Assembly: GCA_000004985.1 (NCBI GenBank)
Contig: GG738848.1
Reading direction: 5' to 3' (one strand)
DNA length: 64,000 nt
Origin: Naegleria gruberi
Lineage: Eukaryota
The position numbers were made by a program, and so were the translations under genes. Numbering within the stretch: the first letter of the stretch is position 1; each line of letters starts with the position of its first letter. Shown here one piece after another: positions 2,787 to 64,000 of the stretch. The notes beneath the pieces were generated by a model, which was not told where the DNA came from, did not search any database, and saw nothing but the letters and a program-made list of their open reading frames with translations.

Positions 2787-4013
2787 ATGAGCAAACGAAA
2801 TAGACAAGATTTTGAAAATTATCATCAATTTATTAATTCGGAGGAAATATTCACTAACAATTTTAATATTATGGAAGAGAAGGCAAAAAAGAGTGTGAAA
2901 TTCCAACAAGAAATATTTTCAGATGATGTTTGTTTTGAAATAATTTCCATGATTGATGATTCATGGTTTATTTTAAATAATTGTTGTTTAATTTCAAAAC
3001 AATTCTTTAATGTGATCAAGGAACGTTCAAAACTTGTTATTCAATTTAACAAAAAATTTACAAAGAAACGAGTTCAATTATTCATGAAAAGTCAATTCAT
3101 GAATAGTATTGTTAATCTTAAAGTTTCTCGCCGGTTACTTGACTCTTTAGAACAACCCAAATTCATAAGTGAAATGAAACAATTAACATCACTTAATATT
3201 TCTGACAATCAAATTGGCTTAGAAGGAGCCAAATACATCAGTGAAATGACACAATTAACATCACTTGATATTAGTGTAAATCGAATTGGTGTTGAAGGAG
3301 CTAAATTCATAAGTGAAATGAAACAATTAACATCACTTGATATTAGTGTAAATCGAATTGGTGTTGAAGGAGTTAAATTCATAAGCGAAATGAAACAATT
3401 AACATCACTTGATATTTCTGACAATCAAATTGGCTTAGAAGGATCCAAATACATCAGTGAAATGACACAATTAACATCACTTGATATTAGTGTAAATCGA
3501 ATTGGTGTTGAAGGAGCTAAATTCATAAGTGAAATGAAACAATTAACATCACTTAATATTAGTGTAAATCGAATTGGTGTTGAAGGAGTTAAATTCATAA
3601 GTGAAATGAAACAATTAACATCACTTGATATTTCTGACAATCAAATTGGCTTAGGAGCCAAATACATAAGTGAAATGACACAATTAACATCACTTGATAT
3701 TTCTGTAAATCGAATTGGTGATGAAGGAGCTAAATTCATAAGTGAAATGAAACAATTAACATCACTTGATATTTGTGACAATCAAATTGGTGTTGAAGGA
3801 GCCAAATTCATAAGCGAAATGACACAATTAACATCACTTGTTATTACTAGCAATCGAATTGGTGTTGAAGGAGCTAAATTCATAAGTGAAATGAAACAAT
3901 TAACATCACTTGATATTTCTGGCAATCGAATTGGTGATGAAGGAGTTAAATTCATAAGTGAAATGAAACAATTAACATCACTTAATATTAGTGTAAATCG
4001 AATTGGTGGATGA
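2787..4013 (+). CDS. F-box-like plus leucine-rich-repeat protein. It has 24-aa RI-like LRRs with consensus LTSLDISxNxIGxEGAKFISEMKQ. The ORF probably continues to 4483 but is broken by frameshifts.
   Basis: The N-terminus has an F-box-like segment (DDVCFEIISMIDDSWFILNNCCLISKQFFNVI). It is followed by about 12 perfect 24-aa LRR units. A 1-nt insertion at about 4011, a 1-nt deletion at about 4210 and further indels around 4340-4380 break the frame. The in-frame natural stop is at 4481-4483. Confidence 0.6.
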   Translation: MSKRNRQDFENYHQFINSEEIFTNNFNIMEEKAKKSVKFQQEIFSDDVCFEIISMIDDSWFILNNCCLISKQFFNVIKERSKLVIQFNKKFTKKRVQLFMKSQFMNSIVNLKVSRRLLDSLEQPKFISEMKQLTSLNISDNQIGLEGAKYISEMTQLTSLDISVNRIGVEGAKFISEMKQLTSLDISVNRIGVEGVKFISEMKQLTSLDISDNQIGLEGSKYISEMTQLTSLDISVNRIGVEGAKFISEMKQLTSLNISVNRIGVEGVKFISEMKQLTSLDISDNQIGLGAKYISEMTQLTSLDISVNRIGDEGAKFISEMKQLTSLDICDNQIGVEGAKFISEMTQLTSLVITSNRIGVEGAKFISEMKQLTSLDISGNRIGDEGVKFISEMKQLTSLNISVNRIGG

Positions 4014-4483
4014 AGGAGTTAAATTCATAAGTGAAATGAAACAATTAACATCACTTAATATTTCTGACAATCAAATTGGCGTAGAAGGAGCCAAATACCT
4101 CAGTGAAATGACACAATTAACATCACTTGATATTTCTGACAATCAAATTGGCTTAGAAGGAGCCAAATACATAAGTGAAATGAAACAATTAACATCACTT
4201 GATATTTCTGCAATCGAATTGGTGATGAAGGAGCTAAATTCATAAGCGAAATGAAACAATTAACATCACTTAATATTAGTGTAAATCGAATTGGTGGAGA
4301 AGGAGCCAAATACATCAGTGAAATGAAACAATTAACATCACTTAATATTATGACAATCGAAATTGGTGACAAGGAGCCAAATACATAAGTGAAATGAAAC
4401 AATTAACATCACTTCATATTACTAGCAATCAAATTGGCGTAGAAGGAGCCAAATACATAAGTGAAATGAAACAATTATTGTAG
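3160..4483 (+). repeat. Tandem 72-bp coding repeat array of about 18 units. A 216-bp higher-order repeat of three units is visible at 3209..3640.
   Basis: The units are near-identical at the nucleotide level. Alternating DNQIGLEGAKYISEMTQ and VNRIGVEGAKFISEMKQ variants give a 216-bp periodicity. The minus-strand ORFs 3209..3424 and 3425..3640 are near-identical mirror images of this array. Confidence 0.85.
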
Positions 4484-5012: not shown

Positions 5013-7124
5013 TCAGGGAGGAACCAGAGTTGTTTGAGAATGAACACTTGGAAATATAACATGCCACAAATATTTAAAGTCCAAAAAGAGAGTTTTCCAA
5101 TTTAGAAGCATATTTTGAAATCGAATATTGTTGAGAAAGACATATGAATCCGTTTCACATGCCTCCAAACTGTGTGATATGAAATATTTCAGTAGAGGTG
5201 AAATTACGTATCGTGTGAATAGATTTGAAATATTTTGAGGACGAAAGACTGCCTCTGCCAAGTAATCCACAAACCAAACATAGGAATAGGTATAGTGAAA
5301 GACAAGTTGAAGATTTCTACTAAACGTAAAGTTGAATGTGTAGGGAAGTGGATGTACGTGCTTTTGTCGATTCTTCTTCTTTTCCAATCGAGAAGCAACC
5401 AATGATTCATGCAATGCTAAACAAGATTCACACACCAGTGCAATTCCTCTTCCATAGTAAGGATTAAGTGAGGCAACAGCATCACCCAGAGCGAGGAATC
5501 CCTCTACAATTGATTTCTTACCTCTCTTATTGGTAAGAGAAGGCAAAGTATCCCAATGATTGAACAAGACATAATCTCTCCTGTAAATACTCCAATCCAT
5601 AACTGGTGGTTCTCCCTCTCCCACAAACTTGGTAAAACACTCCTCACATACTTTGAAAGCACTTGGAATTTCTTGCTTGATGAATTGGAGAACTGCATCT
5701 TTGGATTTTAGGTTTTTGGCCTTTTCAAATGTTCCCAATTTACTGACAATAAACATGGCAAGATTATTTTCAATTCTATAGACCATTACTCGTTCAGTTT
5801 TGGGAAATTCATTACTATAGACCGTTAGCCATTGAGGTTTCTTTTCTCTCATGTAGAAACCCTCAGAGAGACATTCTGGCTTGATCTTGAATATTGCCAT
5901 TACGTTTGTGATTTGAGACTTCTTTTTGGTTTTCTTCATTGGTTTGGCACGGTGATCAATTTCTGCCACCTCATTCAAAATCCACTCTGGTGTCTTGGTA
6001 TAAACACCACTGCAATCAATGACCAAGCTGGCATCAAGTGTGCTTGTCTTTCCATCTATTGAAGGATGTCCACCTATGGCATCAAACTTGTTCTCTCCAC
6101 TAATCTGTACTCCTACAGCTCTGTGAACGATATTTCCCAAATATGTGGGTGAATTAGATTGTTGTTGAGAGCTCGAACTCGATGTATCTGAAATGGTATT
6201 ATGATCTGGAATTTCACTATACGTTGCAGAGAAAATCTTCTTGGTAATACTGTCATATGAACTAAAGTGTTCCTCATGATATCGTTCCCAGAGAATATCC
6301 TTCACCTCTGTCTTTTCCAATACTATAATATTTTTCAAGTTTTTTACATAATCTCTGAGCCAACTTTCCAAAAAGGTCCTCGACATCATAATCATGTTGG
6401 GAAAGTTCAATAAATTAAGTGGTACTCTCGGTTTACCATTTGTTCTATAATCAGCCATATCAATACTCAATTCAAAGGCACCTTCTTCGACCATACTCTC
6501 AGTGAATGATTTTTCATTCTTGGTCAATAACTTGTCTAACAATTGGATACATTTCATCAATAGGATATGAGTCTGATGTCCGTGAGCCACCATCGTATGC
6601 CCAGGAACCATCTCCTTCTGTTCCACAATATAAACCTGATCAAAGTGATGTGAGAGAACACACCCAGACAACAACCCAGATATAGAACCACCAATAATTA
6701 CACAACTTTTACCAGCTTTGGGTATGTGCTTCTTTTCCAATTGTTCAATTTCCTTCTCCAATGTCAAATCAGAGTGTTGCTTAATCTCCAAGAATGGAAC
6801 TATAAACTTTTTAAATAACTTTACAATAATCGCCTTTAAAATAAATACTAGAATAAAAATAAATAAATAATACACCAATAAGTCAATACTATTACAAGAT
6901 ATATTTGAGGATTTGCAAAAATCTTCCTTCCAATCCCTCACTCGATCCTTATAAATCACAGTTTGATTCATCACCAAATGTGTCCAATTCTTTAAAGTTT
7001 CCCAATCATTCCGATGTTGTTGTTGATGATTCGTATGTTTTATCTGATGTTGATTATGATGACTATTCATCACTGATGATGATGATGCCTGTGATGATGG
7101 ATTACTCCTCAAACTTCCCGTCAT
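5013..7124 (-). CDS. FAD-dependent monooxygenase/hydroxylase-like flavoprotein with an N-terminal TM segment.
   Basis: A dinucleotide-binding GxGxxG motif is present (SCVIIGGSISGLLSGCVL). The flavoprotein-monooxygenase motif GDAVASLNPYYGRGIA (GD-x6-P-x2-G-x-G) is also present. The 703-aa ORF is uninterrupted. The N-terminus is His/Gln-rich with a hydrophobic segment (LLVYYLFIFILVFILKAIIV). Confidence 0.6.
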   Translation of the reverse strand: MTGSLRSNPSSQASSSSVMNSHHNQHQIKHTNHQQQHRNDWETLKNWTHLVMNQTVIYKDRVRDWKEDFCKSSNISCNSIDLLVYYLFIFILVFILKAIIVKLFKKFIVPFLEIKQHSDLTLEKEIEQLEKKHIPKAGKSCVIIGGSISGLLSGCVLSHHFDQVYIVEQKEMVPGHTMVAHGHQTHILLMKCIQLLDKLLTKNEKSFTESMVEEGAFELSIDMADYRTNGKPRVPLNLLNFPNMIMMSRTFLESWLRDYVKNLKNIIVLEKTEVKDILWERYHEEHFSSYDSITKKIFSATYSEIPDHNTISDTSSSSSQQQSNSPTYLGNIVHRAVGVQISGENKFDAIGGHPSIDGKTSTLDASLVIDCSGVYTKTPEWILNEVAEIDHRAKPMKKTKKKSQITNVMAIFKIKPECLSEGFYMREKKPQWLTVYSNEFPKTERVMVYRIENNLAMFIVSKLGTFEKAKNLKSKDAVLQFIKQEIPSAFKVCEECFTKFVGEGEPPVMDWSIYRRDYVLFNHWDTLPSLTNKRGKKSIVEGFLALGDAVASLNPYYGRGIALVCESCLALHESLVASRLEKKKNRQKHVHPLPYTFNFTFSRNLQLVFHYTYSYVWFVDYLAEAVFRPQNISNLFTRYVISPLLKYFISHSLEACETDSYVFLNNIRFQNMLLNWKTLFLDFKYLWHVIFPSVHSQTTLVPP

Positions 7125-7672: not shown

Positions 7673-9016
7673 ATGCTTTCTTTCGCCTTTAGAGTTTTTA
7701 AACCTTTAATTTATAGTGTAGTTGGACTTTTTCAACCTTCTGATCCTGCTGTATCTTCCTCCTATGTGAGATTGGCCAATACTCTATTCGAATTACATTT
7801 TAATTATATTGAGAATAAGAAACCAATTTCCAATTTCTTTATAACTTGTGAGTTTGATGGTAAAACAGTGAGAAAGCAAGTATTACTAAAAGGTGATGGA
7901 AAACGTGATGGTGGTATCTATCATCATGCAGTTGAACTTCATCCACAAAAGTTAATGTCCATTAAGGTGGAAACCGAAAGTGGAAGGTTGTTATTCGAAG
8001 CTCTAGATATTAATACCAACAGTTTCAAACAAGAAACTCTAACATTAATGGAAATGTCTATTCCAGACAGAAAGCAAGAACTATTCGATTCTATTAAGGA
8101 CAAATTAATTTCCATTTCCAAAAATGTAATCATTGGATCCATGTCCATCACATTTAGTGGCAAATCATCCCTCCTCAACAATATCTTCAAAACACTTGGT
8201 TCCAAACATGTTCCATTCCCAGTAGGAAGCACAGAACAAGCAAGAGAAGCTTACAAACTATTTTATGGAAGTTATCCAAGTAATGATTATTTGTCGTCGT
8301 TCACCACTGAAATTCTCAAGAAAAATGTGGATGATGTTGAGGGAATGGAATCTCTTTGGATTTGGGATTTGCCTGGAATTTTCGAATTTACCACTGCCGG
8401 TCAAATGCCAACACTTTTGAGTTTGACAGATGACTTATTGAACAAGTTATTTGTTACAAAGAATGGAATGATGAAATTGAATGGTAACCAAGAGGATAAA
8501 AAAGTCAATCGAGAAGAAGAAGAATTCTCACTGAAACCTCAAGCTTTAATTGTAACTCTTCCATTGGAGAATAGTTTCGCCTATAATTCCACAAGTGATA
8601 ATAATATTGCGTTATATTTTGGAAGAATTTCTGGATTTCTATCAAAGGAGCATAATGTGAAATCTGTTTATTGTTATACCAAGATAGACGAAACTTATAT
8701 TTACCAGAATTACATTTCAAAGAATGTGGGAATTACTAGCATGTTGGACGAAACTGATCCTACACCAGATCAAATGAAACTCAATTTACTCAAACAATTC
8801 CATGAATGGGATATTTTAGAAAGAAAGGATAATAATTTTCCAGATATGGTTAACAGTGATCATACAATTCCTTTTTTATCAATCAATTCCCCAACTAAGG
8901 AAATTGACAACTTTTTCCAAGTTCAATATTTGGAAGTGTTAAATCTGGCATTGGATAAATGTTTCCAGAAGAAATCATCCCTCTCATGTGAATCCATTTG
9001 CATTGTTAAAAAATAA
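7673..9016 (+). CDS. Hypothetical protein with degenerate P-loop GTPase-like motifs.
   Basis: The 447-aa ORF contains IIGSMSITFSGKSSLLNNIF, which is dynamin/AIG1-like G1 with extra residues. It also contains WIWDLPGIFEF, a DxPG G3-like motif. No further domain was recognised. Confidence 0.35.
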   Translation: MLSFAFRVFKPLIYSVVGLFQPSDPAVSSSYVRLANTLFELHFNYIENKKPISNFFITCEFDGKTVRKQVLLKGDGKRDGGIYHHAVELHPQKLMSIKVETESGRLLFEALDINTNSFKQETLTLMEMSIPDRKQELFDSIKDKLISISKNVIIGSMSITFSGKSSLLNNIFKTLGSKHVPFPVGSTEQAREAYKLFYGSYPSNDYLSSFTTEILKKNVDDVEGMESLWIWDLPGIFEFTTAGQMPTLLSLTDDLLNKLFVTKNGMMKLNGNQEDKKVNREEEEFSLKPQALIVTLPLENSFAYNSTSDNNIALYFGRISGFLSKEHNVKSVYCYTKIDETYIYQNYISKNVGITSMLDETDPTPDQMKLNLLKQFHEWDILERKDNNFPDMVNSDHTIPFLSINSPTKEIDNFFQVQYLEVLNLALDKCFQKKSSLSCESICIVKK

Positions 9017-36849: not shown

Positions 36850-38010
36850 CTATTTCTTCTTTCTTACAAGTGCTCCAGGATGCGAAAGTGATGCCAATTT
36901 AACATTCAACACAATAAACACAATCAATCCAGCAAAAGCAATCCAATTAAACGTAGCACTCGCTCTAATATTCTCAAATATGTAATGAGCCGAAACCACA
37001 ACATTTAGCAAAGCAACCACAAATGGAAAATATTCAGCTGCTCTTTCTAATGAGAAACCATCCTCTCCTCCAAATATATTTGGAGTCAAATTGACTATTC
37101 CCATCACTAGGAAGAGAACGGCAGCTGTTCTTTGTAAATGTGAGCTACCACCTCCATATCCGTATAAATTATCCATATTTAGTTTACCTTCTCCTCCAAA
37201 ATATAACAAGAATGAATTGATGAGAAATAAGAAACCTGTGGACATGGTTGCAATTCTGTAATACTTTTTAGGTTCGTTTTCTTCCTTAGTAACGAATTTT
37301 CTGGTGTCCTTTGCAGCAGGAATGGTTTCGTCTGGACTTTCGATTAATTCGTCAACTTCTTCGTCAATGATTTCGTCTACAACTTCCTTCTTTCTTCTTC
37401 TTGGAGAAACTCTTTCAGAATGAAAACTATTTTCCAGAACCTTTTCCACATTCGAATCCTTTCTCTGTGGAGGCGAGACGATTCGTTTGCTACTATTCGA
37501 ATGAGGATTCGTTTGCCTAATTCTCTGAGTTGCATCTTCAACCAAATCTCTTTCATTCAAATATTGAAAAGAAGAAGAAGATTCGTATTCATCTTCAGTA
37601 TTTTGTTCGAAAGTCGAAGTCGTTGGCTGTTGATATGAATGTTGTAAAGTTTCGGATGTTAAATCCATGACCTTTCGTATTTTCTCTTTCATTTCTTCTA
37701 GATTCGAATCAATTTCTTCAAGTGGTGCTTCAAGCTTGTCCAAAGTGTGATCAATTTTATCAATTGAGTTTTCTACATTTTCTTGATTGATCAAACTGCT
37801 TGTTTCCGTATCACCTTTAGTTTTGAGGTAAAACTTGTCATTATTCGAATCTAATGAGAAACTTGGTCCAAACTTATCCTTTTCAATACTAAACAAGTCA
37901 ATCGTAGTATTGGGAACGTTACTATTAATTGGTGTAATCATTTTCTTTGCAATTTTTCTGTCTGAATAAAAAAGCAAATTTACAAAAATCTTGAAATGTA
38001 ATATTTCCAT
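36850..38010 (-). CDS. Hypothetical membrane protein with a soluble acidic/coiled N-terminal half and four C-terminal TM helices.
   Basis: The 386-aa ORF has hydrophobic helices FLFLINSFLLYFGG, AAVLFLVMGIVNL, FPFVVALLNVVVSAHYIF and IAFAGLIVFIVLNV. The true start may be the internal ATG at 37941 (MITPINSN), because the first 23 codons look UTR-like. Confidence 0.35.
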   Translation of the reverse strand: MEILHFKIFVNLLFYSDRKIAKKMITPINSNVPNTTIDLFSIEKDKFGPSFSLDSNNDKFYLKTKGDTETSSLINQENVENSIDKIDHTLDKLEAPLEEIDSNLEEMKEKIRKVMDLTSETLQHSYQQPTTSTFEQNTEDEYESSSSFQYLNERDLVEDATQRIRQTNPHSNSSKRIVSPPQRKDSNVEKVLENSFHSERVSPRRRKKEVVDEIIDEEVDELIESPDETIPAAKDTRKFVTKEENEPKKYYRIATMSTGFLFLINSFLLYFGGEGKLNMDNLYGYGGGSSHLQRTAAVLFLVMGIVNLTPNIFGGEDGFSLERAAEYFPFVVALLNVVVSAHYIFENIRASATFNWIAFAGLIVFIVLNVKLASLSHPGALVRKKK

Positions 38011-40134
38011 TTATGTCACATTAAAGATATGAACTTTTTTCTTGGAATAATCAGCAACGTAAAGCTCATTATTCACTTCATTCATACACATTCCATAAGG
38101 TCCTTGTAAATGTTCACTTTTGAAACTATGTAAATATCCGCCACTTTCGTCAAATAATTCGATTCTCTTATTGGACGAATCACAAATCAATAATTGTCTA
38201 GAAACCTTATCATACAACAGTCCTCTCACAAAATTGAATTCCCCAATTGAGCTACCACTCTTTCCAAATGAATATTTCAACTCGGCTTGATAATTATTCT
38301 TGAAATTGACTCCAGTTGCAAGTGGAGATTCTGGTGTGATGGAAAGTTTAAAGATTTGAATCTTATTCGAACCTGTTTCACTCACTATTAAATCACCATT
38401 CAGTGTCATGTCTATTCCCCATGGAGAGCTAAAGTTTATACCACAAGTTGATTGATCGAGTCTGTGAATTGGTTGACCAGTTTGTGAATTCAACAAGTGA
38501 ATGCAATTATTATTGTAATCACATACAAATAGCAGTTTGGAATTTTTACAAAATGTCATTCCACTTGGATAGGAAATTATTCCACTTGATTGTTTCCATT
38601 CGTAAAATTGAGATTGTTTGTCAATGATTGAAATTTTCAATAATTGTTCCAAATTGAACTTGTAAACTGAACGATCGTTGGATCCAATGAAGATGCTCGT
38701 TCTAGATGATGCAGAGGAAGGACTCTTTGGAGAGGAAACTGCATCACCTCTTATATCTTCCTCAATAATATACAAACAATGAGGTCTGAAGAAGGTCTTG
38801 ATGGATCCTTTAAATTTCTTTGTTTTCAAATCGTAAACCATTATTCTACTATTGAAATAGTCGCTCACTAAGAGAACATTTAAGAGGTGAGAGATTTTGA
38901 CATCGTATGGATTGGAGAGATTGTTCTTTTCATTTTCTTGTTGTTCCAGAGAGTGAGAATAAGCGATTGTTCGAGGAATGACTCTTCTCTTCATGATATT
39001 CGAAACAGAAGAGAAATGCTCCAACTCTGTTCGAATTTCCTCGACAATTTCACTCAAATCCATGAGTTGATTCTCATATAAATCTGAAATGTCAGTAAAC
39101 TGAAACAACAACTTGATTTTCTCAAATTCTTGAAGCGTTTTGTAATATTTTCGGTGTTTCCTTTCCAATAATTCATATCCTGACATGTCTGATAAACTAG
39201 CAAACTCCAAATACAACAATTTCACATCCTTCTTCAATGTTGCAATTTCTCTGACTATCATTTCGTATTCCAAACATTTCTTCTCAATGCTTTCGTTCAA
39301 TTTCTCTTGTTTCTCCCTCACTACTCTTTGTACATTCTCATAAAATTCATTCGATTGCTGTTTCATCCTCAATTTCATTTTAGAAATCTTGTTTAAATAG
39401 AATTGACATTGATCATTCGTCTTGTTTGGTTCCAAACCATGCATACTCTCCCATTCATTCACACTATTTTCCAATTCACTCAATTCTTGTGTCATTTTCA
39501 ATTTTTCTTCAGCTTCTATATTCTCAATTAGGAAAATATCATGTCCCTTATGCGAATCAACAGAACAAGCAGCACAAATTAATGATTGGCAAGTTTTGCA
39601 GACAGTATTGATAGCTACTGAGTGGAGAATACATTTGGGAGGTTTCTTTCGGGCAGAAAGTGGTGAGGGTTGATGCTGAGAGGGCGAAATTGTATTTAAA
39701 CTCAAGGGAGAAACTAAACTATTCTGAACCGAATCATGAGGAAAGATGTGATGATGTGAGCACTTCTTTAAATGTGTTTTTGTATGGAATTTACATAGAT
39801 ACAAATCACATTCCTTGCAAAAACAAGTTGATTCTTGATATTCTTCTGCTTTCTTCCAACATTTCGAACAAGGTTGAATTTTATAATAAACTCCATTCGA
39901 AACTAAAGATGACGGTGATGATTTAGGAGTTTTAGGTGAGGATTCGGTACTGCCAACAAGAGAAGATGAGGTCGTGTTGCTACTAGCACCACTTGAGGAA
40001 CGAGAATGAATCATGAACTTTTTTTTTATGAAGTTTTTATTAGAGTTGATTGTTGACATGTGTGTTGCATTTGGAAACAAGAAGAGAATGAGGAAACTTT
40101 CTTTCTTGAAACCATGTATGATTCGATTTTTCAA
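38011..40134 (-). CDS. TRIM-like protein with two B-box zinc fingers, a coiled coil and NHL repeats. No RING finger.
   Basis: B-box-like zinc fingers are CSKCWKKAEEYQESTCFCKECDLYLCKFHTKTH and CILHSVAINTVCKTCQSLICAACSVDSHKGHD. A heptad-rich region of about 200 aa follows. At least five NHL-type repeats are present (LLVSDYFNSRIMVYDL, LLFVCDYNNNCIHLLN, DLIVSETGSNKIQIFKL, QLLICDSSNKRIELFD, ELYVADYSKKKVHIFNV). The likely start is an internal ATG (MSTINS or MIHSRSS). Confidence 0.65.
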   Translation of the reverse strand: MKNRIIHGFKKESFLILFLFPNATHMSTINSNKNFIKKKFMIHSRSSSGASSNTTSSSLVGSTESSPKTPKSSPSSLVSNGVYYKIQPCSKCWKKAEEYQESTCFCKECDLYLCKFHTKTHLKKCSHHHIFPHDSVQNSLVSPLSLNTISPSQHQPSPLSARKKPPKCILHSVAINTVCKTCQSLICAACSVDSHKGHDIFLIENIEAEEKLKMTQELSELENSVNEWESMHGLEPNKTNDQCQFYLNKISKMKLRMKQQSNEFYENVQRVVREKQEKLNESIEKKCLEYEMIVREIATLKKDVKLLYLEFASLSDMSGYELLERKHRKYYKTLQEFEKIKLLFQFTDISDLYENQLMDLSEIVEEIRTELEHFSSVSNIMKRRVIPRTIAYSHSLEQQENEKNNLSNPYDVKISHLLNVLLVSDYFNSRIMVYDLKTKKFKGSIKTFFRPHCLYIIEEDIRGDAVSSPKSPSSASSRTSIFIGSNDRSVYKFNLEQLLKISIIDKQSQFYEWKQSSGIISYPSGMTFCKNSKLLFVCDYNNNCIHLLNSQTGQPIHRLDQSTCGINFSSPWGIDMTLNGDLIVSETGSNKIQIFKLSITPESPLATGVNFKNNYQAELKYSFGKSGSSIGEFNFVRGLLYDKVSRQLLICDSSNKRIELFDESGGYLHSFKSEHLQGPYGMCMNEVNNELYVADYSKKKVHIFNVT

Positions 40135-40302: not shown

Positions 40303-41809
40303 TTAATATTTTTCATGTAATTCTTGGAAGTGTGTTTCGGTTTTCTTCCTATTCAAGAAAACTAGTAAAATACACACCACAATACACAATGCAATCAAAG
40401 ATAGAATAAATAATACACCAACAGCAATAATTGGCTTCAATGTAAATAAATAATCAACTGGAGCAGTACTGAATTGAAAGTTTCCACCTTTTGAGAATAC
40501 TACATAGTATTGAGTTGCTTCTCCTGAAAAGAGATAGAGATTAGTTGAATTTACATGATAGTCATAATTGAAAAATTGATTTCTTTCAATATTCCAAGTG
40601 ATTGGTTTCTTTCCAATATAAACATCTTGAATTGTTGCTGTATTTTCAATTCTGATTTCAAAATATGTTTGAGGTTGAGTGGTGAAAGTTGCTGTGAATG
40701 GTGCGGAATTATCACTTTGAATTGAGTATGTTTGTCCAATTTCAAGTTTAGTATAATTAAAACTAATCTTTTTAGCATAAAACAAATTATATACAGCACT
40801 GGGTGGAGAAATTGTGAATGAATAATCTGGATTTCTATTGGAGATGACTTGTTGTGTAAGATTTGATTGAACAATGGCTACCATTTCTTGATTTGAATTT
40901 GAGAATTGCCACACTGATTGAACTGGATCATTAGATTTCAACTCTTGAGCTATCAATGAAATGCAACCATAATTTTGATAGAAATGATCTTCTTTCACAC
41001 TTTCAATTGAATTCCATTCATTTACCAAACAATTCCCAATATAAAATAAAACATTTCGTTGCTGAATAGGATTCAGTTTCAACACCAAATTAGGTTGTCC
41101 ATAAACGNNNNNNNNNNNNNNNNNNNNNNNNNNNNNNNNNNNNNNNNNNNNNNNNNNCTGATTTCATTCTGGGAATGTTAAATTTGCAAAATCCACATTA
41201 ATTTCCATAACTTTTCCCCATTCAACTGGTTTTGTTTCTCCATATGGACAAGCAAGTTTAGATTTTCCAGAAAATCCATAATTGATAACACCACCTTCTT
41301 TTGATTCACCAGTGAATGTGAGAGTTGGTCTTTCAGCAGCAGTGAAATCACATGTTAAAGAAATAGACAATGCTCTTGTAACTCCATCAGTAGCAGGAAT
41401 ACCAGCATGGAAGACCTTTACACCAGCACTTTCATCTGCAGGATTGAGCAATGAAAGTTTAGGAGTACCTTTCTTACCGATAGGATAGCAGAGATTGTAT
41501 TGTTTAGCATATAGATATCCTTGAGCGTCAACAGTACAAACAGCATTGCTTGGATTGGTAACTCCTCCACAAATATTGCTAAAATTCCAACTAATTAGTT
41601 TCCGATAATAATAAACAAAATACATACAAATAAAAGTTGAAATTAGCATCGGTTGCTGCAACTTTATATCCTGAACCAGGAATATCAATATTAGAAAGGT
41701 CGATAATTCCTCTATAAGCAATTGGTAATGAACAAGTCGGTGCGGAGAATACAACATGCACACAACAAGCAAGCAGCAATGTGAGCAACACAAAGGTCAA
41801 TCGTAACAT
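40303..41809 (-). CDS. Surface protein paralogue A with a signal peptide, an extracellular domain and a single C-terminal TM with a short cytoplasmic tail. It has two exons and is interrupted by a 50-N assembly gap.
   Basis: Exon 1 is 41809..41628 (MLRLTFVLLTLLLACCVHVVFSAPTCS...) and ends at a GTATGT donor. A 49-nt intron spans 41579..41627. Exon 2 runs from 41578 to 40303. It is about 90% identical to gene B over the ectodomain. The C-terminus is IIAVGVLFILSLIALCIVVCILLVFLNRKKTETHFQELHEKY. A 1-nt deletion relative to gene B creates a stop just before the gap at 41108..41157. Confidence 0.45.
41108..41157. other. Assembly gap of 50 N inside tandem paralogue A.
   Basis: A run of exactly 50 N. 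The flanks align to adjacent positions of paralogue B, so little or no real sequence may be missing. Confidence 0.9.
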
Positions 41810-48146: not shown

Positions 48147-50132
48147 ATGATCAGAAAGAAGGTTCGTAGAAATCCTGCCTCCGGTGATGGAGCACAATCT
48201 CTCGAGGAATTGAATAGGATCAGAAAGGAACAATACTTGAAGAAGAAGGCCATGCTTCAAGATTTGGTCAATGCACAAAAAAAGGACATTCCGATCCAGT
48301 ATATTATCCTGATCAAACAATATGAAGATGAAACATTTGATGAAATTTATGTAGCCCTTGATCCGATGCTACATATATTTAGTTTTTTAAGTCCACATGA
48401 TTTATTGCTCAAGGTTGGATTGGTTTGTAAATCTTGGTATTTCCTTTCTTTTAGAACCAATTTCCTTTGGCAATCTTTGTATTATAAAGAATTTGGAGAT
48501 GTACAAGCAAGACCTATTCATACTGCTCTCCTTGATGAAGATGATGACTCTGAATTTGATGGACATTGGAAGAAGGTGTTCAGTTTTAGAGTGGATTTGA
48601 GAAACAAATGGTACAATAATTCACCAGACAGAGTTGGTTATTGTGATATTATGGAGAGTGAAATTGTAAAAAGTACAAGAACTAAATACACCAATAAGGG
48701 AGAACTTTTCAGAAAGGATGCACACACAGCTTGTGTTGGAGAGGATGAAATTGGAACAGAGTCAGAAAATAAGAAATTGTACAGAGTTAATCCAGAGGAC
48801 AGATCGACCATCACTACAATGTGTTTGATTGGATCAGATCGTTTATTGGCAGGTGATGCTAGAGGCGTCATTAAATTGTTCAACTTGCGATCTTTCCAAC
48901 AAGTGAAAAAGTTTGTTGGAGCTCATCAAACCAGTGTACACAAAATTGTTGCTATCACTCCTGAACACTTGAAATTCAAATCGGATGACATGTCAGTTTT
49001 GGGATATTCATTCAAACTTGAAGCAACACATCATTACTTCTTATCTAATGATTTCCAAAACAATTCTATTTGTGTTTGGGATTTGGAGACTGGTTTGCTA
49101 TTGAAGAGATTTAGAGGAACTGACAAGGTTCACTCTGTATCTGGATCATCCACACACCTGAATGGAACTGTATTAGATATGAGAATTTGTACTATTAATG
49201 AGTATGGACCTGTACTCTTTGTAATTACACCAAAGAATGTAGAAATTTATGAACTCAACACTTTAAGATTATTGAAATTATATAGACCTTTCTATGAGCC
49301 AAAGAAGCATGAAATTGTCACCAAGAAACTCATTGATGCTGCCATTGAATCCTTTGATAAGGATGACATTGAAGTAGAGCAGGAGGAAGAAGAGGCTGAT
49401 GATAATTTTGATGATGATACTGGTATGAATCAACCATCAAAAACTTTGGTTTGTTTTGAATTGTTAGATGGAAATACATTTGCCTTTGTCAGTGGTGATA
49501 TGAAACTCTATGTGTACAATTTGAGTAATGGTATTTGTGTCAAGAAAATGGACATGAAGCATACTAAGATGCTTGACATTGATAATTACAATAGGCCAAC
49601 TTCCATTGATTCCTTCAAGAAGAAGTATAACAAATTCAAAGAGTCTGACGTGCTCATCACGCAAATAGCCAAGACCAATTTGGAGGGTCAAATTGCTTTG
49701 GTATTGAGCTTGAGACCATCAGGTTATAATGGGTATGATCCACTCAAATCCTACATCAAGTACTTTGATTATAGATTTGGTTGTGAGAATCCTGTGAGGT
49801 CATGTCAAGTCGGAAATTATGACTATTACTCTTCTGGTAAAATCTTCTTTGATGACGATAAGATTATTCAATGCACTCAGAGTCATATTCAATTATTGGG
49901 ACGTTGGGATGGTACTTTGAAACAAGAATTGTTGCCAACTCTCAATGTTGGATATTATACGATTGCCAACTTTATTGCAGATGATCGTTTCCTAATTATG
50001 GGTACATCCTTTGGTGGTATTGTTGTGAATGATTATGGAGGAAATTTATTGTATTGGAGTGATTTGAAGGGTAGAAAACTTGTGGATGATGAACCAAAAG
50101 AGGAGGATAAAATGGATGATTCTCAAGATTAA
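48147..50132 (+). CDS. F-box protein with a WD-repeat-like C-terminal region.
   Basis: The 661-aa ORF has a clear F-box (LDPMLHIFSFLSPHDLLLKVGLVCKSWYFLSF). WD-like blades are present (LAGDARGVIKLFNLRS..., NSICVWDLETGLLLKRF). The tail is acidic. Confidence 0.5.
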   Translation: MIRKKVRRNPASGDGAQSLEELNRIRKEQYLKKKAMLQDLVNAQKKDIPIQYIILIKQYEDETFDEIYVALDPMLHIFSFLSPHDLLLKVGLVCKSWYFLSFRTNFLWQSLYYKEFGDVQARPIHTALLDEDDDSEFDGHWKKVFSFRVDLRNKWYNNSPDRVGYCDIMESEIVKSTRTKYTNKGELFRKDAHTACVGEDEIGTESENKKLYRVNPEDRSTITTMCLIGSDRLLAGDARGVIKLFNLRSFQQVKKFVGAHQTSVHKIVAITPEHLKFKSDDMSVLGYSFKLEATHHYFLSNDFQNNSICVWDLETGLLLKRFRGTDKVHSVSGSSTHLNGTVLDMRICTINEYGPVLFVITPKNVEIYELNTLRLLKLYRPFYEPKKHEIVTKKLIDAAIESFDKDDIEVEQEEEEADDNFDDDTGMNQPSKTLVCFELLDGNTFAFVSGDMKLYVYNLSNGICVKKMDMKHTKMLDIDNYNRPTSIDSFKKKYNKFKESDVLITQIAKTNLEGQIALVLSLRPSGYNGYDPLKSYIKYFDYRFGCENPVRSCQVGNYDYYSSGKIFFDDDKIIQCTQSHIQLLGRWDGTLKQELLPTLNVGYYTIANFIADDRFLIMGTSFGGIVVNDYGGNLLYWSDLKGRKLVDDEPKEEDKMDDSQD

Positions 50133-57894: not shown

Positions 57895-59676
57895 TTGCAC
57901 CAATTTTATTTTAACCTTAAAAAAATGTCTATAAGCTCATCGTCAAGAATCACAGATTACTTCATCAATCCTCCTAAGGAAACACCTCCTAAGGCAGAGG
58001 AGAGCGTAATAAAGTACCCGTCTCTCGGTTGTGCTGGAGTGCTTAGTTCTGCTACAGTAGGAAGTGTAGCAACACAATTGTCACAACCTATGTTCCTTAA
58101 CAATTTCGGAATTAATGTTGATGCAGCACTAACTGATGATAAAGGAGAAAGAAACGAAGCAGAAAGAAATTTAGAGAAGGTGTTTTCACAGGACATTATT
58201 GATGACGCTTTGTTTAAAATAACACAAAGAAAATCTAATATTAAGGTTGGAGAAAACCACTCATGTGCTCTTGTTAATTGTAATTTGTTTTTGTCTATTA
58301 GATTTACAGATATGAAAGTGGATATGAACGGAAAAGAGTTAATACTTAAAGCTTCAGATGACGTTACTCACCACTCCAAATTCTCTAATCAAAGAGAAGA
58401 AGAAAAAGCCTCTTTTGATCTAACAGACGACGAGAAATCCTTCAATCTTTTATTGTATTACATGCAAAGTGTGTTGAGGGACACGTTGAAACCAGATTAT
58501 TACGTTATGCTTAATCAATGTAAATTTGTTACGGACCTTTTTGGCAAAAACATTGTTGAGATGTTCAGAGCAGAATCCAAAGAAATGAGGGAGGATTTTT
58601 TTGCAGATTTGTAAGTAGCTAATTAACTGGTTCAATGTTAATATTTCATAGTTTGAAAGTTATTATGCTGTCTCAAAGGCAATGCTTAGTGTTGATGGAG
58701 CAACTTGAAAAGAAAACAGGTTATATTTATCCCATTAAGGCTCCAAGTATGGGGAATGCTGGCGATTTTTACAGACTTTCAATGACAACAGTTCTCCCTT
58801 CGGAATTATTTTACTTTCTATTATTCGAATTGCAAATTACAAATCCAACTTTCACACAATTCAAATTGGCATCAATCATCCAACAGTTAAAAAACAAAAA
58901 GACCGATGTAAAGGCAGTCATAGATAACAAAAAGAGCGTTTCTGATGAAAATATACGTCTCATGGACAATCGTTACAAAAGTCTTGAACAAAAACTAACA
59001 ATACTAGAAAGCTTTTACCCAGAATTCTTAAGAGATCAAAATATTGTTATAGATAACACTGCATGCTGTTCAGCCATCGATAAACTCCAAGCAGGAATTG
59101 CTATTAAAGGAAGCATAATTTCTAATGAAAAAGATGTTAGAAGTCTTTTTTTGGATTGTCAAATTATTTCTAAATATGTAATTGAACTCACTAAGAGAGT
59201 GTTAAGAGAATTAGGAGTTGATATGAGTCTTATTATCACTAACACCGGAAAGGAGTTGAGTGATATAGACATTGACAACCATTTTGATTGTCTAAATATT
59301 AGATTCAAAAGAATGGTAAGTATCAAAACGACTTGAAGTTAAATCATATTGTAGCCAACAAACAGAAATAACAGATCTCGTGTCTTCATTGTTGAGAAAT
59401 ATTTGAATGATAAATGGTCCAAAACTCATATAATCAAACACTATGATGACAAAGATTACTTTGACAACGAAACTTATAGCAACCCTTTAGTTCTTAATAA
59501 GCATCACCGTGACCAAGTCCCTAACCTTTTTGTAGCAATTATGCCATTTATTGTTCATGATCATTCATATTGTACCCAAGAAAACATGCTTAAGATACTG
59601 TACTCTGCATCTCTATGTCTCTCAAAAACTCACAAGATGAAACATGTTCACGGAGACATAAAACCTGATCATATTT
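57895..59676 (+). CDS. Multi-exon gene ending in a protein-kinase catalytic domain. Partial, because the 3' end runs into the assembly gap.
   Basis: Exon 1 is 57895..58610. The ORF-track stop TAA is actually part of a GTAAGT donor. Intron 58611..58651 is 41 nt with acceptor tcatAG. Exon 2 is 58652..59315, with a GTAAGT donor right after ...FKRM. Intron 59316..59354 is 39 nt with acceptor ttgtAG. Exon 3 is 59355..59676+ and encodes RVFIVEKYLNDKWSKT (subdomain V-like) ... KMKHVHGDIKPDHI (catalytic loop HxDxKxxN-like). All junctions were checked in frame. Confidence 0.45.
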
Positions 59677-62600
59677 NNNNNNNNNNNNNNNNNNNNNNNN
59701 NNNNNNNNNNNNNNNNNNNNNNNNNNNNNNNNNNNNNNNNNNNNNNNNNNNNNNNNNNNNNNNNNNNNNNNNNNNNNNNNNNNNNNNNNNNNNNNNNNNN
59801 NNNNNNNNNNNNNNNNNNNNNNNNNNNNNNNNNNNNNNNNNNNNNNNNNNNNNNNNNNNNNNNNNNNNNNNNNNNNNNNNNNNNNNNNNNNNNNNNNNNN
59901 NNNNNNNNNNNNNNNNNNNNNNNNNNNNNNNNNNNNNNNNNNNNNNNNNNNNNNNNNNNNNNNNNNNNNNNNNNNNNNNNNNNNNNNNNNNNNNNNNNNN
60001 NNNNNNNNNNNNNNNNNNNNNNNNNNNNNNNNNNNNNNNNNNNNNNNNNNNNNNNNNNNNNNNNNNNNNNNNNNNNNNNNNNNNNNNNNNNNNNNNNNNN
60101 NNNNNNNNNNNNNNNNNNNNNNNNNNNNNNNNNNNNNNNNNNNNNNNNNNNNNNNNNNNNNNNNNNNNNNNNNNNNNNNNNNNNNNNNNNNNNNNNNNNN
60201 NNNNNNNNNNNNNNNNNNNNNNNNNNNNNNNNNNNNNNNNNNNNNNNNNNNNNNNNNNNNNNNNNNNNNNNNNNNNNNNNNNNNNNNNNNNNNNNNNNNN
60301 NNNNNNNNNNNNNNNNNNNNNNNNNNNNNNNNNNNNNNNNNNNNNNNNNNNNNNNNNNNNNNNNNNNNNNNNNNNNNNNNNNNNNNNNNNNNNNNNNNNN
60401 NNNNNNNNNNNNNNNNNNNNNNNNNNNNNNNNNNNNNNNNNNNNNNNNNNNNNNNNNNNNNNNNNNNNNNNNNNNNNNNNNNNNNNNNNNNNNNNNNNNN
60501 NNNNNNNNNNNNNNNNNNNNNNNNNNNNNNNNNNNNNNNNNNNNNNNNNNNNNNNNNNNNNNNNNNNNNNNNNNNNNNNNNNNNNNNNNNNNNNNNNNNN
60601 NNNNNNNNNNNNNNNNNNNNNNNNNNNNNNNNNNNNNNNNNNNNNNNNNNNNNNNNNNNNNNNNNNNNNNNNNNNNNNNNNNNNNNNNNNNNNNNNNNNN
60701 NNNNNNNNNNNNNNNNNNNNNNNNNNNNNNNNNNNNNNNNNNNNNNNNNNNNNNNNNNNNNNNNNNNNNNNNNNNNNNNNNNNNNNNNNNNNNNNNNNNN
60801 NNNNNNNNNNNNNNNNNNNNNNNNNNNNNNNNNNNNNNNNNNNNNNNNNNNNNNNNNNNNNNNNNNNNNNNNNNNNNNNNNNNNNNNNNNNNNNNNNNNN
60901 NNNNNNNNNNNNNNNNNNNNNNNNNNNNNNNNNNNNNNNNNNNNNNNNNNNNNNNNNNNNNNNNNNNNNNNNNNNNNNNNNNNNNNNNNNNNNNNNNNNN
61001 NNNNNNNNNNNNNNNNNNNNNNNNNNNNNNNNNNNNNNNNNNNNNNNNNNNNNNNNNNNNNNNNNNNNNNNNNNNNNNNNNNNNNNNNNNNNNNNNNNNN
61101 NNNNNNNNNNNNNNNNNNNNNNNNNNNNNNNNNNNNNNNNNNNNNNNNNNNNNNNNNNNNNNNNNNNNNNNNNNNNNNNNNNNNNNNNNNNNNNNNNNNN
61201 NNNNNNNNNNNNNNNNNNNNNNNNNNNNNNNNNNNNNNNNNNNNNNNNNNNNNNNNNNNNNNNNNNNNNNNNNNNNNNNNNNNNNNNNNNNNNNNNNNNN
61301 NNNNNNNNNNNNNNNNNNNNNNNNNNNNNNNNNNNNNNNNNNNNNNNNNNNNNNNNNNNNNNNNNNNNNNNNNNNNNNNNNNNNNNNNNNNNNNNNNNNN
61401 NNNNNNNNNNNNNNNNNNNNNNNNNNNNNNNNNNNNNNNNNNNNNNNNNNNNNNNNNNNNNNNNNNNNNNNNNNNNNNNNNNNNNNNNNNNNNNNNNNNN
61501 NNNNNNNNNNNNNNNNNNNNNNNNNNNNNNNNNNNNNNNNNNNNNNNNNNNNNNNNNNNNNNNNNNNNNNNNNNNNNNNNNNNNNNNNNNNNNNNNNNNN
61601 NNNNNNNNNNNNNNNNNNNNNNNNNNNNNNNNNNNNNNNNNNNNNNNNNNNNNNNNNNNNNNNNNNNNNNNNNNNNNNNNNNNNNNNNNNNNNNNNNNNN
61701 NNNNNNNNNNNNNNNNNNNNNNNNNNNNNNNNNNNNNNNNNNNNNNNNNNNNNNNNNNNNNNNNNNNNNNNNNNNNNNNNNNNNNNNNNNNNNNNNNNNN
61801 NNNNNNNNNNNNNNNNNNNNNNNNNNNNNNNNNNNNNNNNNNNNNNNNNNNNNNNNNNNNNNNNNNNNNNNNNNNNNNNNNNNNNNNNNNNNNNNNNNNN
61901 NNNNNNNNNNNNNNNNNNNNNNNNNNNNNNNNNNNNNNNNNNNNNNNNNNNNNNNNNNNNNNNNNNNNNNNNNNNNNNNNNNNNNNNNNNNNNNNNNNNN
62001 NNNNNNNNNNNNNNNNNNNNNNNNNNNNNNNNNNNNNNNNNNNNNNNNNNNNNNNNNNNNNNNNNNNNNNNNNNNNNNNNNNNNNNNNNNNNNNNNNNNN
62101 NNNNNNNNNNNNNNNNNNNNNNNNNNNNNNNNNNNNNNNNNNNNNNNNNNNNNNNNNNNNNNNNNNNNNNNNNNNNNNNNNNNNNNNNNNNNNNNNNNNN
62201 NNNNNNNNNNNNNNNNNNNNNNNNNNNNNNNNNNNNNNNNNNNNNNNNNNNNNNNNNNNNNNNNNNNNNNNNNNNNNNNNNNNNNNNNNNNNNNNNNNNN
62301 NNNNNNNNNNNNNNNNNNNNNNNNNNNNNNNNNNNNNNNNNNNNNNNNNNNNNNNNNNNNNNNNNNNNNNNNNNNNNNNNNNNNNNNNNNNNNNNNNNNN
62401 NNNNNNNNNNNNNNNNNNNNNNNNNNNNNNNNNNNNNNNNNNNNNNNNNNNNNNNNNNNNNNNNNNNNNNNNNNNNNNNNNNNNNNNNNNNNNNNNNNNN
62501 NNNNNNNNNNNNNNNNNNNNNNNNNNNNNNNNNNNNNNNNNNNNNNNNNNNNNNNNNNNNNNNNNNNNNNNNNNNNNNNNNNNNNNNNNNNNNNNNNNNN

Positions 62601-62885
62601 NNNNNNNNNNNNNNNNNNNNNNNNNNNNNNNNNNNNNNNNNNNNNNNNNNNNNNNNNNNNNNNNNNNNNNNNNNNNNNNNNNNNNNNNNNNNNNNNNNNN
62701 NNNNNNNNNNNNNNNNNNNNNNNNNNNNNNNNNNNNNNNNNNNNNNNNNNNNNNNNNNNNNNNNNNNNNNNNNNNNNNNNNNNNNNNNNNNNNNNNNNNN
62801 NNNNNNNNNNNNNNNNNNNNNNNNNNNNNNNNNNNNNNNNNNNNNNNNNNNNNNNNNNNNNNNNNNNNNNNNNNNNNNNNNNNNN
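59677..62885. other. Assembly gap of 3209 N.
   Basis: A run of N. The 1198-aa minus-strand ORF at 59622..63218 is an artefact of translating N as X. Confidence 0.95.
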
Positions 62886-63627
62886 TTGGTTACAACATTT
62901 ACTCAACCTAAAGGTATTACCATGTTCAATGGTGATATTTATGTGGCAGACACAGGAGTAGCTGTTGTGTGGAAAGTTAAAATTACATACAGAAATGTTG
63001 GTACAGCAACTATTTATGCTGGAAGTTTCAGTACTTTGAATAATAATTATTGCAATGTCATTTATGCTACCAATTGTAAACTTATCAAACCAACAAGTGT
63101 AACTTTCTTTCAAGATGGGACTATGGCAATAGCTGATGGTAGTAGAGTTATTATGGTTAGTAAAGACCAAACGGCTTACCCAGCCCCTTTTTCCATGAGT
63201 GTTACTAATCCTATTCATGTTGTTGCATATTATGCTTCCAACATGTTAGTTTCTGATGCAGGTTTATCACGTTTCATTCAATTCAATAAGGATCAAGCTC
63301 AACCAAATACCAATGAAGTTTTGCGTAATGGATGGTCAGGAAATACATATTTTGGTATTGTTAAACAAGCTGATAATTCCAAGAATGTGTTTTTCCTCAC
63401 ATCTCAAGATCGCAATAACCAAAGAAATCAAGTTGCTTTGTTTAATTTTATTGACAGCGATTTACCAAGCACCAGTATAACAACACTGTATGGCATGTAT
63501 AGTTCTTTCAATTTTGACAATCCACATAATGCTTTGGGCATTTACTTGCCTGAGCCACAACAAATGAGATTGACTTCTAGTAATCAATTATATTTCCCAG
63601 TTTTCAATTCTGCTGTTGTTAAAGTTG
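62886..63627 (+). pseudogene. Subtelomeric open reading frame fragment, beta-propeller/NHL-like, open from the gap edge into the telomere repeat with no stop.
   Basis: There are 247 sense codons with no stop in AT-rich DNA (LVTTFTQPKGITMFNGDIYVADTGVAVVWKV...[11 protein letters not shown]). The frame then continues through the (GGGTTT)n repeat, which has no stop in any frame. The 5' end is lost in the gap. Confidence 0.3.
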
Positions 63628-64000
63628 GGGGTTGGGTTTGGGTTTGGGTTTGGGTTTGGGTTTGGGTTTGGGTTTGGGTTTGGGTTTGGGTTTGGGTTTG
63701 GGTTTGGGTTTGGGTTTGGGTTTGGGTTTGGGTTTGGGTTTGGGTTTGGGTTTGGGTTTGGGTTTGGGTTTGGGTTTGGGTTTGGGTTTGGGTTTGGGTT
63801 TGGGTTTGGGTTTGGGTTTGGGTTTGGGTTTGGGTTTGGGTTTGGGTTTGGGTTTGGGTTTGGGTTTGGGTTTGGGTTTGGGTTTGGGTTTGGGTTTGGG
63901 TTTGGGTTTGGGTTTGGGTTTGGGTTTGGGTTTGGGTTTGGGTTTGGGTTTGGGTTTGGGTTTGGGTTTGGGTTTGGGTTTGGGTTTGGGTTTGGGTTTA
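63624..64000 (+). repeat. Telomere-like hexamer repeat (TTTGGG)n, about 62 copies, G-rich strand 5' to 3' toward the window end.
   Basis: A perfect tandem GGGTTT array runs from about 63628 to the end of the window. It is preceded by a short degenerate GTTGGGGGTTGGG start. Orientation and position fit a right-arm chromosome terminus. Confidence 0.85.

Follow-up and report, generated by a model that had tools for sequence, protein, structure and literature searches.

FBXL-type adaptors, Skp2, FBXL2, FBXL17 and TIR1 among them, carry a three-helix F-box directly in front of a solenoid of leucine-rich repeats (LRRs), and their repeats are of the 26-residue, cysteine-containing kind. The GALA/RipG type III effectors of Ralstonia solanacearum, which are secreted by bacteria, combine an F-box with LRRs of another kind: these follow a 24-residue pattern, LxxLxLxxNxIGxxGA, shared with Pandoraea and with LegL1 of Legionella, and they form irregular arrays with insertions. 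Here we describe a gene of the free-living amoeba Naegleria gruberi that invites comparison with both. It occupies positions 2787–4483 of a 64,000-nucleotide stretch of contig GG738848.1 (GenBank assembly GCA_000004985.1; this whole stretch is ‘the window’ in what follows), and it would encode a protein with a divergent F-box and some 18 LRRs—provided that five single-nucleotide insertions and deletions (indels) in the last third of the repeat array are what we suspect them to be, errors of the assembled consensus.

The F-box/LRR gene appears to be unannotated at present, an apparent gap in the N. gruberi reference annotation. The public N. gruberi protein set holds no protein model for 2787–4483, and the exact 408-aa open reading frame (ORF) that the locus contains as it stands is absent from the public protein collection, where the best match is a paralog 77% identical to it. 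Both neighbors, D2V1A4 at 5013–7124 and D2V1A5 at 7673–9016, are annotated. The organism is N. gruberi NEG-M, whose reference is a Sanger whole-genome-shotgun draft of 2010. The GenBank proteins EFC49274, EFC49440, EFC49277, EFC49280 and EFC49434, all from one 712,659-bp scaffold of this species, are each matched exactly by a long ORF of the window.

The leucine-rich repeat array

That the gene encodes LRRs is unambiguous. Pfam LRR_6 (PF13516, the ribonuclease-inhibitor type) matches the 408-aa ORF over eight stretches with 181.8 bits, against a cut-off of 23.4, and LRR_8 and LRR_4 match it as well. Each 72-bp unit of the array encodes one 24-residue LRR, SEMKQLTSLxIsxNxIGxEGaKfI, and when the frameshifts described below are repaired the consensus of the units reads L-T-S-L-x-I-x-x-N-x-I-G-x-E-G-A-K-x-I-S-E-M-K-Q. 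An AlphaFold2 model, built with 18 relatives, reached a mean predicted local distance difference test score (pLDDT) of 85.7 and a predicted template-modeling (TM) score of 0.82. Residues 1–40 form a disordered tail in this model, and the array forms a solenoid with one 3-residue strand and one 8-residue helix for every 24 residues, at pLDDT above 90. Among solved structures, the model is matched best by the LRR domain of RipG4, a GALA protein of Ralstonia (E 4e-20, 32% identity), with ribonuclease inhibitors and Legionella LegL1 coming after it. Superposed as a whole, the model fits best on FBXL2 as seen in the GGTase3-FBXL2-SKP1 complex (6o60; TM scores 0.74/0.77), and FBXL17 and TIR1 are among the structure matches, too. 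GALA proteins were also found by sequence search, at E 1e-38 and 29% pairwise identity. By profile and model, then, the array is one of 24-residue LRRs of the ribonuclease-inhibitor/GALA type, with the pattern given above for the GALA proteins.

A first-pass annotation, made from the sequence without database searches, had seen about 18 tandem copies of the LRR, had called them almost identical in DNA sequence, and had described a three-unit, 216-bp higher-order repeat among them. The copy number stands. Tandem Repeats Finder reports 86% matches at the 72-bp period, and cutting the array at the invariant string AG[TC]GAAATGA yields 18 full units followed by a 24-nt stub that ends in the TAG. 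All units are 72 nt long except unit 7 (69 nt), unit 12 (73 nt), unit 15 (71 nt) and unit 17 (71 nt). The near-identity was overstated: units are 75–100% identical in pairs, and neighboring units about 86% on average. As for the higher-order repeat, it is present in one half of the array but not in the other. At the 216-bp period Tandem Repeats Finder reports 6.1 copies with 90% matches. In units 1–9, identity climbs to 95.4% between units three apart and to 93.5% between units six apart, compared with 86% at distances of one and two; it is 100% for the pair of units 2 and 5, and 99% for units 3 and 6. In units 10–18, identity at a distance of three is 84%, and no higher-order repeat is found. 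Over the array as a whole, a permutation test of the 216-bp order gives p = 0.024.

Two other patterns were set aside as by-products of this periodicity. The 23-bp ‘repeat’ that Tandem Repeats Finder reports at 4312–4411 is a sub-match of the 72-bp array, and a pair of 71-aa ORFs on the minus strand, at 3209–3424 and 3425–3640, each exactly 216 bp long, is no evidence of antisense genes.

The N-terminal domain

The first-pass annotation had named the locus an F-box-LRR gene outright. For the first half of that name the case has to be made at the level of profiles and folds, and there it is supported. The N-terminus aligns well with those of N. gruberi relatives, and PF12937 (F-box-like) is matched by 12 of the 16 aligned family N-termini, with a best E of 2.6e-6. 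An exhaustive search with the family profile through 1.84 billion representatives returned 99 clusters only; 50 representatives from among the newly found matches were scanned against Pfam, and 19 of the 50 proved to contain an F-box (best E 1.9e-31); no other domain except LRRs recurred in them. Against the PDB, the same profile matched FBXO44, FBXO42 and FBXW11 only; the alignments cover the F-box, but E is about 1, which is not significant. In the AlphaFold2 model, helices at residues 46–54, 59–66 and 71–80 (block-mean pLDDT 72–82) stand directly before the solenoid, so that a three-helix F-box fold lies immediately N-terminal of the repeat domain, an arrangement that agrees with the superposition on FBXL2. 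The linker that follows has strands at 83–87 and 108–113 and a helix at 93–100.

Two observations speak against an F-box. On its own, the gene's N-terminus matched no Pfam family (neither of the F-box models PF00646 and PF12937, nor any other), even up to E 10, and Phe-Ser stands in it at the usual position of the Leu-Pro that is present in most F-boxes. Word-indexed searches added little: the N-terminus alone had one match, and the N-terminal alignment had nothing below the E-value threshold for the size of the database. We conclude that the N-terminus is probably a divergent F-box, with its support at the level of family profile and predicted fold.

By homology, the protein would be the substrate adaptor of a Skp1–cullin–F-box (SCF) ubiquitin ligase. 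Its divergent F-box, at residues ~43–83, would dock on Skp1, and the solenoid of ~18 LRRs would bind a target on its concave face.

The window contains a second, unrelated F-box gene, D2V1C1, at 48147–50132. Its 661-aa product has a canonical match to Pfam F-box-like (E 3.8e-10) and after it, weakly, matches to WD40/beta-propeller families.

A lineage-specific family

The nearest matches in sequence, ‘predicted proteins’ of N. gruberi 215–305 aa long, have the N-terminal module of the window gene and ~4–7 LRRs. The N-terminal 126 residues of the window gene are 63–82% identical to those of the relatives we label P0125, P0003, P0001, P0006, P0007, P0002 and P0009. In the N. gruberi paralogs (XP_002680629 / NAEGRDRAFT_64253, XP_002680560 / _64117, XP_002675340 / _69393, XP_002678923 / _66053 and others) the module reads MSKRNRQDFEN...IFSDDVCFEIISM.DDSWFILNNC.LISKQFFNVIKERSKL, and it is followed by 24-residue LRRs of the same SEMKQLTSL type. 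P0001, P0002 and P0003 are encoded on N. gruberi scaffolds of 695,587 and 536,960 bp. P0009 comes from a metagenome contig, ENA ERZ929261 (locus L001, 2086–2877, 33% GC); it is Naegleria-like, and shares the N-terminal module. By its sequence, the locus in the window is a new member of an F-box/LRR family specific to the N. gruberi lineage. It differs from the paralogs in having ~18 LRRs, and in lacking a protein model.

Several paralogs end in ways that recall an LRR read out of frame. Judged from the proteins, such tails are found in P0001 (...DNPNW), P0002 (...IVLVMKEPSS) and P0003 (GAIREQ). Frameshift-truncated arrays may, on this likeness, be common in the N. gruberi assembly.

The family amounts to a lineage-specific growth, in a free-living amoeba, of F-box proteins with GALA-like LRRs, and it bears on the origin of the bacterial effectors of the GALA/RipG type and of the LRR proteins of Legionella.

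How the array evolved

At 14 of the 24 codons, all 18 units agree in every nucleotide. Variation is limited to 17 of the 72 columns and is mostly non-synonymous, falling in codons 4, 10, 12, 13, 15, 18, 21 and 23. Of the five exposed x positions of LxxLxLxxN, three belong to codons 10, 12 and 13, which the model places in its beta-strand or immediately behind it, and it is plausible, from their variability and placement, that they could confer diversity of recognition. All four combinations of alleles are found in 75 of the 136 pairs of variable columns, and only five substitutions are private to a unit in the 14 clean units (1008 nt). The units are, therefore, mosaics drawn from a small pool of variants.

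The first-pass annotation had proposed concerted evolution or unequal crossing-over, and these figures, together with the three-unit peak of identity in units 1–9, bear it out: recombination or homogenization between units, by unequal crossing-over or gene conversion, is supported by the pattern of variation. We take the array to be the product of recent duplications in steps of 72 and 216 bp, by unequal crossing-over or by slippage, in which an A-B-C triplet was lately multiplied about threefold; recombination or gene conversion has also shuffled the units. Growth of LRR arrays usually leaves tandem and higher-order structure of this sort, which is unsurprising in an LRR family. The array is likely to vary in copy number.

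One qualification concerns the synonymous sites. The metagenome relative P0009 codes for SEMKQLTSL with the identical codons, AGT GAA ATG AAA CAA TTA ACA TCA CTT, so the nucleotide uniformity of the repeat core extends beyond the array in the window. Codon bias, or a uniformity common to the whole family, may accordingly explain part of the agreement at synonymous sites, in place of recent homogenization. A metagenome scan with the 27-nt repeat core found no matches; a protein-based scan of metagenomes returned 105 stretches matched by pattern, none of which was confirmed.

Frameshifts in the distal array

The first-pass annotation had located single-nucleotide indels at about 4011, 4210 and 4340–4380. 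We find them at 4008/4009, at 4210/4211 and, three together, at 4350–4371 (Table 1). The deletion in unit 15 brings the LRR frame back to that of the ATG, and the net shift of all five is −1. The annotation had also ended the gene at an in-frame stop at 4481. The TAG does close the LRR frame of the last units, but it comes into the frame that starts at the ATG only after conceptual repair of the indels. So repaired, the 565 codons contain no internal stop, and units 12–18 keep every invariant codon.

The placement of the indels is telling. All five lie within the 17 columns that vary between units, for which the probability by chance is ~7e-4. In unit 12, the stretch AATTGGTGGATGAA is a common supersequence of the variants AATTGGTGATGAA and AATTGGTGGAGAA of other units, and GGTGGATGAA is an exact merge of GGTGATGAA and GGTGGAGAA, both of which are found in other units. 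The insertion in unit 17, read from the units over the short stretch AATCGAAATT (CGAAATT) only, is a merge of CGAATT and CAAATT. The baseline for such merges is 7% for random insertions and 16% for random deletions. In unit 15, the base missing from TCTGCAAT is the very one that varies in codon 13, where other units have G, A or T. Indels and private substitutions occur in a ratio of about 1:1, which is not what neutral decay produces.

From this pattern we incline to the view that the indels are consensus errors. The assembly would have stacked reads from two variants of the unit, or from the two alleles of this heterozygous strain, and merged them into one consensus, and the real gene would encode an intact protein of ~565 aa. 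A consensus made from stacked reads predicts indels in variable columns, merges, and intact units downstream; neutral decay predicts none of these. The NEG-M reference was assembled from Sanger data (PMC9928731, Table 1), and heterozygosity has been reported for N. gruberi, in a genus described as mainly heterozygous diploid (PMC9928731). If we are right, the locus flags probable errors in the 2010 assembly, indels at places where stacked units or alleles differ, and such errors may truncate other members of the family as well.

A number of points weigh against this explanation. When the window of the merge test is widened around the unit 17 insertion, the CAAATT variant alone is matched. The indels at 4350/51 and ~4370 are not clean merges, and one of them involves a C that is present in no other unit. 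The first half of the array, its most repetitive part, is free of frameshifts. The short paralogs with their out-of-frame-looking tails could equally reflect real truncation by frameshift throughout the family. Coverage of the genome was reportedly ~8x, and at that depth a Sanger consensus is normally accurate.

Real lesions, all causes taken together, deserve serious thought as a minority possibility. The simplest form of the idea, which we consider unlikely, is that the locus is an ordinary decaying pseudogene, or else a gene for a truncated 408-aa F-box protein with ~11.7 LRRs and a drifting 3′ part. Further indels are found only downstream of the premature stop, as expected for an unconstrained tail; the locus has no public protein model and its close paralogs are short; and P0009, which has only four LRRs and then a non-LRR tail, suggests that short forms are natural in this family. 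Neutral drift that left four further indels should, however, have left tens of private substitutions, whereas the clean units have three after the first frameshift and two before it, and unit 17 has one. Nor would random decay spare the frame and the invariant codons, or confine all the lesions to variable columns. The first-pass annotation had offered a choice between a decaying gene and a mis-assembled repeat; the merged insertions, their placement and the lack of excess substitutions lean toward the second and lend no support to the first.

More intricate, and somewhat harder to credit, is the proposal that the indels are real and were left behind when non-identical units recombined or converted one another, through error-prone processing of heteroduplexes at mismatched codons. 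On this proposal the array would be a recognition module in the course of diversifying, damaged in this instance. The strong mosaicism of the units fits, as do indels that keep to variable columns and in some cases are hybrids of two variants, and the paralog tails seem, as inferred from the proteins, to be broken at the same variable codons: the Q/R codon in P0001 and codon 13 in P0003. The simpler merging of reads in a consensus predicts the same pattern, however, 1-nt insertions are not a normal product of mismatch repair, and we know of no such mechanism established for LRR arrays. Its boldest extension we regard as improbable: that real indels arise specifically at hypervariable LRR codons through frequent recombination or conversion, and that the whole family is a fast-diversifying repertoire of recognition proteins. 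Were it true, the shuffling of a few variant codons within and between arrays would yield new specificities and many broken copies alike. Barely conceivable, finally, is a gene whose frame is restored in expression, through programmed frameshifting or through splicing that removes the damaged units. Formally, splicing has twenty solutions, GT...AG deletions of 368–515 nt that connect the 5′ ORF with the TAG at 4481, but all of them use ordinary repeat sequence and we rejected them as implausible: the donors (GTGATG, GTGAAA, GTGTAA, GTGGAT) and the acceptors are LRR coding sequence present in every upstream unit, where splicing would therefore occur, too, and the acceptors have no polypyrimidine tract. 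Programmed frameshifting would require several shifts, each with a recoding signal of its own.

Features of the locus and its surroundings

Table 1. Coordinates of the F-box/LRR locus and its parts in the window
Feature	Position	Strand	Basis and remarks
Actual ORF, 408 aa	2787–4013	+	ATG at 2787 to premature TGA at 4011–4013; ORF list and three-frame translation
Whole conceptual gene, 565 codons	2787–4483	+	Five 1-nt indels repaired; ends with TAG at 4481–4483
Divergent F-box-like motif IFSDDVCFEIISMIDDSWFILNNCCLISKQFFNVIKERSKL, residues 43–83	2913–3035	+	Family-profile matches and predicted helices
Linker and N-terminal cap, residues 84–127	3036–3167	+	Between F-box and array; conserved in paralog alignments
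Tandem array, 18.4 units of 72 bp	3157–4477	+	Tandem Repeats Finder; unit table; Pfam LRR_6, LRR_8 and LRR_4; solenoid of the model
Units 1–9, clear three-unit (A-B-C) 216-bp higher-order repeat	3168–3812	+	Lag-identity analysis
In-frame 3-nt deletion in unit 7 (GGCTTA^GGAGCC)	3651–3656	+	Conserved Glu of GxEG lost; not mentioned in the first-pass annotation
+1 insertion in unit 12	4008–4013	+	Extra G at 4008/4009 creates TGA at 4011–4013; unit of 73 nt
−1 deletion in unit 15 (TCTG^CAATCG)	4207–4213	+	Base lost between 4210 and 4211; unit of 71 nt
Three 1-nt indels in unit 17, net −1	4350–4371	+	−1 at 4350/51, +1 in CGAAA at 4359–4362, −1 at ~4369–4371; unit of 71 nt
TAG closing the LRR frame of the last units	4481–4483	+	Frame +2 relative to the ATG; three-frame and repaired translations

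At the far end of the window, from 63624 to 63999, TTTGGG is repeated at least 62 times, and the G-rich strand points 5′ to 3′ toward the window end. TTTGGG is the candidate telomere repeat of N. gruberi (Fulneckova et al. 2013, PMC3622300). The window thus reaches the end of a chromosome, and the F-box/LRR locus lies ~60 kb away from it. Truncated by the telomere, or abutting it, with no subtelomeric repeat between, is a coding sequence at 62886–63623 (+) that is open over all 738 nt and continues without a stop into the telomere repeats. Its product is NHL-repeat-like (GDIYVADTG, MAIADGSRV), and the arrangement may reflect de novo addition of a telomere. Two runs of N, at 41108–41157 (50 nt) and 59677–62885 (3209 nt), are scaffold gaps; a 1198-aa ORF at 59622–63218 (−) was discarded as an artefact of translation across the longer of these. 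Another NHL-repeat-like product (YVAD) is encoded at 36850–40134 (−), where ORFs of 386 and 707 aa form one frame split by a single stop at 38011–38013 (...HIFNVT*MEIL...), for which an intron, a pseudogene and a sequencing error are all conceivable causes.

Comparison with known systems

At the DNA level, the array resembles alpha-satellite-type higher-order repeats and LRR genes of variable repeat number, in that a multi-unit period (3 × 72 bp) is better conserved than neighboring monomers, and the monomers are mosaic. It differs from alpha satellite in that it codes for protein, has only about three higher-order copies, and has lost that order in its distal half.

At the protein level, the architecture is that of the FBXL-type adaptors, an F-box directly followed by a solenoid, with the differences that the LRRs are 24 residues long instead of 26 and of the ribonuclease-inhibitor/GALA type, and that the F-box lacks Leu-Pro and matches no Pfam family when taken alone. 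Binding to Skp1 is, for the protein in the window, a prediction. In its repeats, to which our comparison with the GALA/RipG proteins applies rather than to the F-boxes, the protein sides with the bacterial effectors, instead. Those effectors have irregular repeats; what we find in Naegleria is a chromosomal gene of a eukaryote whose array of such repeats is tandem and, at the level of DNA, near-perfect.

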